From contig DNHS01000011.1 in the NCBI GenBank assembly GCA_003485765.1, forward strand, positions 94,277-152,998: a stretch of 58,722 nucleotides of DNA. The letters are read 5' to 3'. The position numbers and the translations under genes are program-made. The notes beneath the pieces were generated by a model. The model was given only the letters and a program-made list of their open reading frames with translations. It was not told where the DNA came from and ran no database searches. This DNA is from Candidatus Omnitrophota bacterium (GTDB lineage: Bacteria; Omnitrophota; Gorgyraeia; Gorgyraeales; Gorgyraeaceae). This document shows, one piece after another, positions 42,324-44,223 of the stretch. Position 1 is the first letter of the stretch, and each line of letters begins with the position of its first letter.

Positions 42324-42824
42324 ATGAAAAAAGAAAAAGGTTTTACTTTAATAGAAGTAATTATAGTAATAACAATAGTAGGGATTGTTTCAGTTATAAT
42401 AGGATCCATGCTACTGGGGGTTGTGAAGGCATGGACGTTTAAGTTGAACAGGAATGATATATTATGGGACGGAAGGCTTGCTATGGACAGGATGACAAGA
42501 GAAATCAGGACAATAAAAAATTCTACAAGTGTTACTACGGCCTCAGCTGCGCAGTTCAGGTTTACTGATACAGGAAATAAAGACATAACATATAGCCTGA
42601 GCAGTACAAATTTAAACAGGACTGAAAACGGCACTGCGAATTTATTGGCTGCAGATGTTTCAGCGCTTACTTTTACTTATTATAATTCAAGCGATGCTGT
42701 TATCCCCAGTCCTGCGGTCAGTCCATCTGCGACAGATATAAGAAGGGTAAGGATCAATCTTACACTTACAAAGAATGGAGAAAATGTTTATTTACAATCA
42801 GATGCTTCGACAAAGAATTTTTAG
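42324..42824 (+). CDS. Minor pilin (PilW/GspJ-like)
   Basis: KEKG|FTLIEVIIVITIVG; AMDRMTREIR; LTFTYY; VRINLTL. Confidence 0.82.
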   Translation: MKKEKGFTLIEVIIVITIVGIVSVIIGSMLLGVVKAWTFKLNRNDILWDGRLAMDRMTREIRTIKNSTSVTTASAAQFRFTDTGNKDITYSLSSTNLNRTENGTANLLAADVSALTFTYYNSSDAVIPSPAVSPSATDIRRVRINLTLTKNGENVYLQSDASTKNF

Positions 42825-44223
42825 ATTTTTTGCCAGCCCTGGCAGGTCTAAAGAAAAGCCTCGCCGATTCGAGCGGGCACGGTGTCCTGCGCAGGCTGAG
42901 GCCGTTCGGCACGAAATAATTTTAGCGGTCCGCTACGGTTTACGGCTCGTCCGCCTCGCTGGGGCGTCCGAGCGTCTTTTCGTAGGCCTGCCAGGGCTGG
43001 CAAGATATAATATTTCTCGTACCAAAGGCATTTCTTTAGTAGCTGTAGTTATTGTAATGCTGATAGTTTCTACGCTGGCGTTACTGATGGCGTCTTTTAT
43101 GTCGTCCGGGAACATTTCAGCAATCACAGACATGCAGGCGGAGCAGGCGTTATATATAGCATCTGCAGGTATGGAGTGTTATCTTGAGCTTTTAGAGGCA
43201 GATTCAGACTGGTCAACTCCGCCTACAGTTTTTACAAATCAGATATTTGGCGCCGGGACATTTACCATTACTTATGCGAATCAGACAGCAGATTCCATAG
43301 ACATTACCAGCACAGGAAAAGTTATTGGATGGGATGGGAATTCAGTCCAGAGAGTTATTGTTCAGCATGTTACAAAGGAAGCTGGCGCAGGAACAGCGTT
43401 TTCCGATTTCGCGATATTTTATGGAGGGGGAGATGGTACGATCGAAAGCGAAATTAAAAAAGAACAGACAATCACAGGCGATATTTTTGTGAAAGGAAAT
43501 CTGGATATAGGAAAGAATTGCACAATAACCGGTAATGTCTCAGCTACAGGTAGCATAACTGTTGGAAGCGGCACAAATATTTCAGGAAGCACTACCCCAA
43601 ATGCTACTCAGCCTGCAAATCAGCCAACGCTGACTACTACATATTATGATAGTCTGATTACAACTGCTTCTGGCCAGCCAGCTGGGAATAGGACATTCGA
43701 GGCAGAAGCGATTTCAGGAACTGTATATATAAACGGCAATGTGACAATAAAGGATTATATAAACGGCTCAGGCACAATAGTTGCCACGGGTTCAGTTGAT
43801 ATAAAAAGCAATGTAGATATCGGGAGCAATATTACTATTATCTCGGATGGGAGTTTGCTTATGAGGATTAATGGGACAGTAGGCAAGAGTGTGTTTTTTT
43901 ATTCCTCTTCCGATATTGAATTGAAGGCAGGTATTGTTCTTGGCAGCGGAGCTGGTTCAGGAGAAGGTGTGGTTTTATTGTCGCCTGGAGATATCAAGTT
44001 AGGCGATAATACTACTTTGACAGGATTTATATTTGGAGATGACGTAGAGATAGGAGAAAATCTTACATTGACAGGCAATCTTGGCGGCAACAGGCTTGAT
44101 ACTTTGGATGAAGGAGCGGTTATAATTAAAAACAATGCAAAGGTAAATTACGGCTCTATAAATGGGTTCAACTCCAACGCGGCAATAACTATCACAACTT
44201 CTTTATGGCAGGAAACATTGTAG
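42802..44223 (+). CDS. PilX/GspK-like pilin with C-terminal beta-repeat domain; leader carries a 174-bp in-frame insertion
   Basis: TKG|ISLVAVVIVMLIV (no Glu5, PilX-like), QALYIASAG; G.V.I/GN.T repeats; nearest in-frame ATGs upstream of the cleavage site are 42802, 42784 and 42775. Confidence 0.72.
   Translation: MLRQRIFRFFASPGRSKEKPRRFERARCPAQAEAVRHEIILAVRYGLRLVRLAGASERLFVGLPGLARYNISRTKGISLVAVVIVMLIVSTLALLMASFMSSGNISAITDMQAEQALYIASAGMECYLELLEADSDWSTPPTVFTNQIFGAGTFTITYANQTADSIDITSTGKVIGWDGNSVQRVIVQHVTKEAGAGTAFSDFAIFYGGGDGTIESEIKKEQTITGDIFVKGNLDIGKNCTITGNVSATGSITVGSGTNISGSTTPNATQPANQPTLTTTYYDSLITTASGQPAGNRTFEAEAISGTVYINGNVTIKDYINGSGTIVATGSVDIKSNVDIGSNITIISDGSLLMRINGTVGKSVFFYSSSDIELKAGIVLGSGAGSGEGVVLLSPGDIKLGDNTTLTGFIFGDDVEIGENLTLTGNLGGNRLDTLDEGAVIIKNNAKVNYGSINGFNSNAAITITTSLWQETL
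42830..43003. mobile_element. 174-bp REP-doublet/MITE-like element with 21-bp terminal inverted repeats
   Basis: TTGCCAGCCCTGGCAGGTCTA...TAGGCCTGCCAGGGCTGGCAA (1 mismatch); each arm is itself a hairpin; GTAG at 42982; GC-rich; 174 = 58 codons. Confidence 0.7.

Follow-up and report, generated by a model that had tools for sequence, protein, structure and literature searches.

In a 58,722-nt stretch of DNA from a Candidatus Omnitrophota bacterium (contig DNHS01000011.1; hereafter the window, whose numbering we use unless another locus is named), the open reading frame (ORF) of a PilX-like minor pilin carries a 174-bp GC-rich inverted-repeat element between its likely start codon and its predicted prepilin cleavage site. 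The element belongs to a family of dispersed repeats, the site is empty in many relatives, and inserts of other types occupy the very same place in related loci; of twelve insertion alleles, ten stay in frame. Most probably the insert is translated within a strongly basic leader of 82 residues, and a leader that is discarded appears to tolerate selfish DNA. In-frame palindromic repeats are already known; their location in a prepilin leader is new.

The course of events that we consider probable is as follows. A dispersed hairpin repeat of about 160 nt, with inverted terminal palindromes of the REP (repetitive extragenic palindromic) type, G/TTAG tags and a three-way junction, would have landed where the upstream minor-pilin gene has its stop codon, and thereby inside the PilX-like coding sequence, after its start codon and before the Gly(-1) cleavage site. 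Later, a second element would have nested in the apex of the first, and a 133-nt internal deletion together with a 1-nt insertion would have trimmed the composite in the lineage of the window, the reading frame being preserved at every step. The insert would then be translated as about 65 extra arginine-rich residues of a leader that remains cytoplasmic and that prepilin peptidase cleaves away; because the leader is removed, the mature pilin would be unchanged and the insertion nearly neutral. The data establish that the repeats form a family, that the site occurs both empty and filled, that one element is nested in another, that the frame is constrained and that the mature part is under purifying selection, and cleavage of the leader is the weakest link of the chain.

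The inserted element and its repeat family

The initial annotation of this DNA, made from its letters, had described an inverted-repeat element of 174 bp at 42830-43003, and a repeat search bears this out. Inverted arms extend over 42825-42850 and 42983-43008 (26 nt, 88% complementary), and the 16-mer TGCCAGCCCTGGCAGG occurs exactly once per strand (42831-42846 on the plus strand, 42987-43002 on the minus strand), where shuffles of the window yield a mean of 0.04 matches. The palindrome TGCCAG-NN-CTGGCA that it had noticed is present in either arm, and the GTAG that it had placed at 42982 occupies 42982-42985, at the right arm. The interior is as GC-rich and hairpin-rich as it had been described: GC across the element is 0.52-0.63, by another figure 57-66%, against 0.40 for the window, the element is one of just two 120-nt stretches with GC above 0.58 in the whole 58.7 kb, and its RNA folds at -98 kcal/mol (z -6.7) on the plus strand and at -85.5 kcal/mol (z -5.7) on the minus strand. 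The REP-like right end reads GTAGGCCTGCCAGGGCTGGCAA and the left end, on the opposite strand, TTAGACCTGCCAGGGCTGGCAA; the asymmetry of GTAG on the right and TTAG on the left is common to the copies in the window and in the related loci L002 and L033. With its terminal inverted repeats, its small size and the lack of an ORF of its own, the element has the features of a MITE (miniature inverted-repeat transposable element). Its edges coincide with the points at which contigs of other copies begin or cease to match (42829-42835 and 42992-43005), and the window holds one copy. TA (window and L021) or AA (L033) can be read at both junctions, a reading left ambiguous by AT-rich flanks with extra bases. 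A match to a known RNA family had been named as a finding that would speak against a mobile repeat; Rfam 15 gave no covariance-model match overlapping 42825-43010, even at E <= 10, and a scan for promoters and terminators inside the element gave none on the strand of the gene.

Relatives of the PilX-like protein show what the site looks like when it is empty. A protein search returned 53 of them, most covering 83-90% of the query, as is consistent with their lacking about 65 extra leader residues, and DNA of the locus was collected for 26 from metagenomes and for 8 by exact protein look-up. Sixteen loci, the most distant of them at 57% protein identity, have exactly 7 nt separating the stop of the upstream gene from the Gly(-1) codon (TAA/TAATAAA/GGC), giving leaders such as MFIYNQMLRQRISNNKG. 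The same distance is 202 nt in the window, a net gain of 195 nt made up of the 174-nt element plus 6 and 20 flanking nt (42824-42829 and 43004-43023) minus 5 nt replaced. The nearest protein relative of the window, L029 (90% identical), is empty, and in the metagenome run X6 contigs join 42820 to 43024, as empty alleles do. Filled sites are found in the window, L001, L005, L030 and L033, and such coexistence of filled and empty states among relatives is itself a MITE feature. Since the filled allele has identical junctions in the independent assemblies L001, L005 and L030, the insertion is not an assembly artefact of the window. The empty sites also correct the leader that had been reconstructed as ancestral, RIFRF..RYNISRTKG, for they read ...RQRI(S/F)NNKG. 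The related claim that removal of the element restores a normal leader holds in part: an exact cut of 42830-43003 makes an in-frame TGA, whereas a cut shifted by one base either way stays open.

Copies elsewhere, which the initial annotation had suggested looking for, do exist. Species-representative genomes, a collection that does not include the genome of the window itself, were scanned with the terminal 20-mer, and two loci matched: L001, the same locus in an Omnitrophica metagenome-assembled genome, and L002, from another such genome, where a 158-nt intergenic copy (6258-6415) lies in opposite orientation between two unrelated genes. Neither locus adjoined a transposase among the neighbours examined, and no transposase family was matched among the 41 window proteins scanned against Pfam. 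In L021 a second copy (7432-7600) lies 2.4 kb from the leader copy of the same genome, between genes of the GT-C and GT2 types; within 7400-7600 of this 561-kb contig a TTTACA...TGTAAA palindrome is followed by a repeat of about 118 nt that is 97% identical to the leader composite. The family also sits in a larger composite in L008 and L021. In L033 it occupies the pilin site with alike outer flanks (ATTTTTTGCCAG...CTGGCAAGATGC) and a reversed interior. When 2814-2982 of that locus is set against 42825-43008 of the window, the outer flanks (ATTTTTTGCCAG...CTGGCAAGAT) are similar and the interior is inverted, as would result from a recombination between the terminal inverted repeats that flipped the interior, or from a second insertion.

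Canonical members measure 158-169 nt and share a three-way-junction fold with two conserved inner hairpins and conserved boxes, and compensatory changes are seen in 17 of the 37 predicted pairs among four copies. Metagenome runs yield 23-110 contigs each that match the arms (about 42832-42889 on the left and 42951-43003 on the right) with flanks that vary from one contig to the next, and run X1, the probable source sample, contains several contigs with other flanks; the many different flanks show that there are many insertion sites. The summed depth of the arms is tens to hundreds of times that of the pilin flanks, summed contig depth not being a copy number, and arms are matched even in runs without the pilin locus. 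Arm 31-mers were found in lake, pond, groundwater, wastewater, permafrost and landfill metagenomes, and two scans found the element in no viral contigs. Judged by these matches and folds, the family is a dispersed, non-coding, hairpin-forming repeat of Omnitrophota. A single-copy element conserved in all relatives had been named as the contrary finding, and the 16 empty loci and the copies at unrelated loci are the reverse of it.

Reading frame and selection across insertion alleles

The 174 nt of the element amount, as had been stated from the sequence, to 58 stop-free codons, and the frame of the PilX-like gene is the only one of the six to be open; shuffles have about 1.1 open frames of six. 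In-frame ATGs lie at 42775, 42784 and 42802, all within the 3' end of the upstream gene and all upstream of the element. The absence of an in-frame ATG between the element and the cleavage site, noted at the outset, extends to GTG and TTG and to the whole interval from 42802 to the Gly codon at 43027-43029; the near-cognate in-frame codons are ATT at 43012, CTG at 42988 and 42997, and ATA at 42916. The leader had been drawn from ATG 42802 (MLRQRIFRF), and what stands of this is a start upstream of the element: ATG 42784, which has GGAG before it and at which gene call P0001 begins, is the more likely start codon of the two. From ATG 42802 the leader would hold 18 lysines and arginines against 5 aspartates and glutamates (net +13), with no membrane-like segment. 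With its net gain of 195 nt, stop-free in the frame of the host gene, the window copy is an in-frame palindromic insert; taken singly, it is modest evidence for translation.

The comparison of alleles provides much stronger evidence for translation than the window copy by itself. Twelve different insertion alleles were found in the same 7-nt spot, and their inserts are of at least five types, namely the TGCCAG family in both orientations, two kinds of GTCATTGC...GCAATGAC units, a GGTCGAAGTTCGGCCTCGACC hairpin pair, an AT-rich insert and short inserts. In ten of them the length is divisible by three and no stop interrupts the frame set by the upstream ATGs, the net gains being +21, 63, 99, 111, 114, 168, 195, 300, 327 and 381 nt. 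The control was the cluster's eight other gene junctions in these loci, with spacers estimated from tblastn ends; among their 37 distinct expansions, only 8 have a length divisible by three (Fisher exact p = 2.3e-4). Against an expectation of one third, the binomial p is 5e-4, or 0.003 if the related alleles of the window, L005 and L030 count once. Gly(-1) is kept in all in-frame alleles, and the insert-bearing leaders are all strongly basic (net +3 to +18) and free of membrane-like stretches. Between the window and L005, the 133-nt deletion is paired with a 1-nt insertion, and the stretch between the two changes, read in different frames in the two alleles, is open in both. The idea that a discarded leader is a safe harbour for inserted DNA, put forward in the initial annotation, gains from this pattern.

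The mature part, in turn, is conserved. For its 398 codons the ratio of nonsynonymous to synonymous divergence (dN/dS) is 0.11-0.22 in eight pairs, which include filled-filled (window versus L005, dS 0.77) as well as filled-empty comparisons, and these ratios indicate that the mature part is under purifying selection. Residues G1, S3, L4, A6 and V7 are invariant in 26 homologues, and G(-1) is invariant in the alignment A1.

Some alleles have features of their own. The units GTCATTGCGAG...CGAAGCAATCTC of L010-L012, L014 and L015 (and of proteins P0015, P0022 and P0023) are translated as ...LLHFARNDKG or ...LAMTREKG, and in one frame the end of the unit gives an ATG five codons before Gly(-1), making a new short leader, MTREKG, possible. 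One GAGATTGCTTCGG...CCTCGCAATGAC unit lies in the leader of L014 (2470-2527), where one further C would restore the frame; the break in its frame may come from a sequencing error or be genuine, in which case it might be phase-variable. The AT-rich insert of L023 (1190-1260), about 60 nt long, interrupts the old frame and provides an ATG right after the upstream stop (MIIQIKKG...), and Cys rather than Gly precedes the hydrophobic helix.

Competing explanations and known systems

All twelve inserts start either at the last base of the upstream stop codon or directly behind that codon. We dropped the view that this junction is a unique hot spot, given that other junctions of the cluster are expanded in 13-47% of loci; it is the frame constraint, not targeting, that is special here. 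Because the downstream gene begins 20-50 nt before the upstream stop, an insert spares both proteins only if it falls in the few bases that separate the stop from the Lys-Gly codons, and selection on so narrow a permissive window is enough to explain the clustering of inserts; a target preference for stop-codon contexts is possible. Within the window, two further junctions (41333-41386 and 41892-41942) are expanded: they measure 52 and 49 nt, where most relatives have overlaps (-13 and -4 nt), and the window therefore has inserts at three successive pilin-gene junctions.

Compared with L005, L030 and L029, the window (41900-44240) switches over a few hundred bases between blocks of 100% nucleotide identity and others of 62-80%. 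Against L029, for example, identity is 100% over 43340-43879 and 63-83% nearby, and the filled block 42740-43099 is 90-100% identical among the window, L005 and L030. The minor-pilin cluster, on this alternation of identities, is a recombination mosaic, and the filled allele has therefore moved between backgrounds by homologous recombination. In the protein tree the window pairs with an empty allele. For this locus, mosaic as it is and with the empty L029 as nearest protein relative, a count of independent insertions on the protein tree was abandoned, as was the reading of the identity between the window and L005 elements as selection on the element, that identity being one block of the mosaic.

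Several observations weigh against the account given above. Translation through the insert and cleavage of the leader are steps that we infer, and the insert sequence is absent from the metatranscriptomes of the same study, all of them tiny runs. The N-terminus of the ORF, ...KG/ISLVAVVIVMLIV..., scores only E = 0.15 and 12 bits against N_methyl (cut-off 21.2), and the ORF rises above threshold in none of the pilin models N_methyl, IV_pilin_GFxxxE and PilX_N; the PilX-like assignment comes from gene order, the motif of KG before a hydrophobic helix, and a chain of distant homologues, and the tip adhesin of the initial annotation is at most a putative identity. No prepilin peptidase (A24) gene was matched among the 41 window proteins in the Pfam scan; the other pilins of the cluster, with their G/FTLIE sites, would need such an enzyme. 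As for the alleles, the two exceptions break the frame, L014 by one base beside a run of six C and L023 by one base with an ATG of its own; the twelve are not all independent events, the locus being a mosaic; and the in-frame alleles L005, L030, L010, L015 and L032 hold internal ATGs that might serve as new starts, so that not all of them need read-through. Finally, no contig in the public runs spans the internal deletion specific to the window (42949-42953).

Among other explanations, one is that the element is kept for a function: an RNA rod beginning 28-46 nt after the start would throttle translation of the pilin, and perhaps of pilMN, an attenuation that the initial annotation had offered as an alternative, or the basic leader would delay processing, either way tuning the dose of the subunit. 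The very stable fold with a start codon outside the rod would suit such a role, as would the 90-100% identity of the block 42740-43099 next to neighbours that fall to 62-80%, and almost half of the sampled alleles have some insert at this place. However, at least five unrelated repeat families have contributed inserts, whose lengths run from 21 to 381 nt and which share neither structure nor peptide, and the canonical junction of the family is gone from the window copy. Other junctions of the cluster are colonised as well, a recombination mosaic yields such identity and has 100% blocks elsewhere too, and neither an Rfam match nor a promoter or terminator on the strand of the gene was found. 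We regard this explanation as unlikely. Slightly less likely still is a broader version in which the inserts are put to use, the leader junction being a recurrent landing pad whose occupants set the amount of the subunit or the speed of its maturation through the RNA rod or an arginine-rich leader of 80-140 residues, while recombination shuffles filled and empty alleles and gives population-level variation of the pilus.

We give equally little credence to the possibility that the insert is effectively intergenic and that translation restarts after it, at a non-canonical codon such as ATT 43012 or by coupling. Near-cognate codons are indeed in frame, a single element would be in frame and stop-free by chance with a probability of about 0.06 (about 1.1 of 6 open frames times one third), and new ATGs do arise near the cleavage site in other alleles (MTREKG in L015, MQRG in L032, MIIQIKKG in L023). 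What argues against a restart is the ten of twelve alleles that keep frame with the upstream ATGs, compared with 8 of 37 control expansions. Moreover, the lengths of the window, L005 and L030 inserts changed three times (-132, +54 and a compensating 1-nt indel), and still one frame is open over up to 138 codons while the other two carry 4-6 stops. Nor does a Shine-Dalgarno-like sequence precede 43012, and ATT would be a very weak initiation codon leading to a leader of 5 residues.

It is very improbable that the insertion inactivated the gene and that the open frame is the remnant of a young pseudogene. L014 and L023 do look damaged at the same spot and L036 has a frameshift in the mature part, but the 398-codon mature part of the window gene is intact, its dN/dS is 0.13-0.22 against filled and empty relatives with dS of up to 0.77 between filled alleles, and the frame has survived later indels. 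Least probable of all is a repeat-induced chimera that misplaced the element or its internal deletion, for although Logan contigs of X1 break at 42651 and 43006 and no public contig crosses the deletion point, both junctions recur in independent assemblies from other samples, the flanks on either side are collinear with relatives, and a random collapse would be in frame one time in three and rarely stop-free.

The nested insertion translated and cut off with the leader, which we favour over these alternatives, has partial precedents among mobile repeats. REP and REPIN elements are said by Bertels and Rainey to be mobilised by RAYT (Y1/HUH) transposases. REPINs resemble the present element in their two short GC-rich inverted palindromes with a GTAG-type tetranucleotide, which close a long hairpin, and in lying, non-coding, at gene ends. 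In contrast, their interior is a short spacer whereas the family described here spans 158-169 nt with a conserved three-way junction, and no RAYT was found among the 41 window proteins scanned. The designation of the element as REPIN- or MITE-like stands as far as an inverted-repeat element of the mobile type is meant, with its empty sites and dispersed copies, and falls as far as an intact REPIN is meant, the window copy being a decayed composite. To our knowledge, no parent insertion sequence with the same ends as the family is known.

Correia elements of Neisseria, the ERIC (enterobacterial repetitive intergenic consensus)/IRU repeats of enterobacteria and the QMITEs of Coxiella likewise have terminal inverted repeats, lengths of 100-200 nt, a strong RNA fold, filled and empty sites and occasional in-frame ORF fusions (PMC5896051, PMC3184786), whereas the present family has no clear target-site duplication (TA or AA being possible) and an apical hairpin that hosts nested elements. 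Repeats fused in frame to ORFs are on record for Rickettsia palindromic elements (RPEs), enterobacterial and pneumococcal repeats, and Coxiella QMITEs (PMC3184786, PMC5896051). RPEs (Ogata et al. 2000, cited in PMC3184786), as far as the summary given there goes, are palindromic repeats of about 100-170 nt that, like the element described here, lie in frame and are stop-free, and that are translated at tolerant positions, as is probable here. They differ, within the same account, in phylum and in sequence, which is unrelated, and in residing in surface loops of mature proteins instead of a predicted cut-off leader; here, too, the same 7-nt spot has been struck repeatedly by several repeat families. 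A literature search returned no report of a palindromic-repeat insertion in a prepilin leader.

We also know of no described prepilin leader as long as 82 to about 144 residues. Class III signal peptides have a hydrophilic leader whose length varies and whose last residue is Gly or Ala; this leader is cytoplasmic by the positive-inside rule and is cut by prepilin peptidase on the cytoplasmic face (PMC10191384). An arginine-rich extension is compatible with these rules, and "very long" prepilin leaders are mentioned for Streptococcus sanguinis (PMC10191384). The PilX-like protein agrees with class III prepilins of the GspK/PilX kind in its basic leader ending in Gly, its stretch of about 22 hydrophobic residues and the absence of Glu5 (PMC10191384), and its gene is the fourth of a minor-pilin set beside pilB, pilC, pilMN and pilO. 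It departs from them in a leader of 82 residues in the window and up to about 144 in L030, and in exceeding the threshold of no pilin model.

The allele series amounts to a natural mutagenesis of a class III signal peptide, with at least ten leaders of 24 to about 140 residues made by unrelated selfish DNA in front of a conserved, selected pilin, and it makes the tolerance of such signal peptides for leader length directly testable. If cleavage is true, the peptidase and membrane insertion would be largely indifferent to leader length, given a basic leader ending in Gly, and for mobile repeats in compact genomes whose genes overlap, removable leaders would extend the intergenic space. Whether prepilin peptidase and membrane targeting do tolerate leaders of up to about 140 residues seems to us evenly balanced. 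The inserts are also a warning for annotation, having led gene callers in different assemblies to four kinds of start, namely the upstream ATG, an ATG in the insert, a GTG in the helix (VAVVIVML) and the Met of MLIV. P0009, P0010 and P0028, which we had considered as frame-broken alleles, turned out to be such gene-caller choices on an empty (L007, L035) or an in-frame filled allele (L033).

Anatomy of the window copy and its gene cluster

By alignment to other copies, the window copy is a decayed composite of two nested elements, whose parts are listed in Table 1 with the neighbouring features. The outer left arm reaches summed depths of up to thousands in metagenome contigs. The nested piece, which holds the small palindrome TAGCGGTCCGCTA, is the remainder of an element that is whole (165 nt) in L005, L001 and L030, where it lies within the apical hairpin of the outer element; in L005 it has the ends TGTGCAGGCTGGGGCC and GGCCCCAGATTGCACA and takes the place of that hairpin. 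Canonical copies have about 30 nt (GGACGAGCGAGAATCGGCGCGGAGCGAAGGA) directly before the right arm, and these are gone from the window copy. Compared with L005, the window copy has 133 nt fewer, made up of the rest of the nested element and this canonical arm, and one additional base at 42924, whereas L030 has 54 nt more near the right arm. In five runs, contigs of other copies leave the window sequence at 42949-42953 and go on into GGACGAGCGAGAATCGGCGCGGAGCGAAGGA, which therefore points to an internal deletion in the lineage of the window. We had considered L005 as a recent nested insertion relative to the window; the canonical copies reverse this order and make the window an internally deleted derivative of an L005-like composite.

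Table 1. Features of the leader insertion and its surroundings, in window coordinates; a slash marks the predicted cleavage site in peptides
Feature	Position	Strand	Remarks
Upstream minor pilin gene, GspJ/PilW/ComGF-like, G/FTLIE N-terminus	42324..42824	+	N_methyl and IV_pilin_GFxxxE matches
PilX-like minor pilin pre-protein ORF, 479 aa from ATG 42784	42784..44223	+	gene call P0001
Predicted leader peptide, 82 aa (17 aa in empty alleles)	42784..43029	+	ends Lys-Gly; Gly(-1) codon GGC 43027-43029
Six extra nt GATTTT	42824..42829	+	between conserved flank and element; left-flank ATTTT similar in opposite-orientation L033
174-bp GC-rich element, TTGCCAG...CTGGCAA	42830..43003	+	composite of outer left arm, nested piece and outer right arm
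Outer element, left arm	42830..42887	+	terminal palindrome TGCCAGCCCTGGCA, TTAG on opposite strand, box AAGAAAAGCCTCGCCGATTCGAGCGGGCACGGTGTCC; aligns to L002, L033, L008, L021
Left 62 nt of second, nested inverted-repeat element (TGYGCAGGCTGRGGCC...)	42888..42949	+	positions 1-61 of the L005 nested element align at 90%
Outer element, right arm	42952..43003	+	hairpin GCCTCGCTGGGGCG, CGTCTTTTC, GTAG 42982-42985, terminal palindrome TGCCAGGGCTGGCA
Twenty extra nt GATATAATATTTCTCGTACC	43004..43023	+	between element and AAAGGC; L033 carries GATGCAAT there
N-terminal hydrophobic helix of mature protein, ISLVAVVIVMLIVSTLALLMAS	43030..43095	+	no Glu at position 5, like GspK/PilX minor pilins

The upstream gene ends in TAG (42822-42824) directly before the inserted DNA, the G of GATTTT having converted the ancestral TAA; in relatives the gene ends in ...NVYLQSDASTKNF followed by TAA. 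The cluster runs from a histidine kinase and three response regulators through PilB, PilC, the major pilin, a YfhO-type GT-C and a GT2 to a GspH-like pilin, two G/FTLIE pilins, the ORF starting at 42775 or 42784 and ending at 44223, PilMN, PilO and a PilP/T2SSB-like protein. The N-terminus of the PilX-like ORF is prepilin-like, a hydrophilic, basic leader ending in Gly before the hydrophobic helix (...TKG/ISLVAVVIVMLIVSTLALLMAS), and the helix is followed in the mature protein by a beta-helix-like repeat region. Among its distant homologues, P0051 and P0054 match PilX_N (PF14341) above threshold and P0048 reaches 17 bits against it; Bactofilin was also matched.

Two variants of the mature part were seen among relatives. 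In L036 (2741-3966), where the leader is empty, the gene is called as two overlapping ORFs of 100 and 321 aa, which implies a frameshift in the mature part, either of a pseudogene or from an assembly error. In L022 and L030 and in the proteins P0041-P0047 and P0049, the first 120 or so residues are common to the other alleles, but the beta-helix repeats are replaced by a C-terminal domain that differs and is shorter (...GGSGYPGGVPQAF...; 351-374 aa), apparently through a domain swap inside this minor pilin gene.

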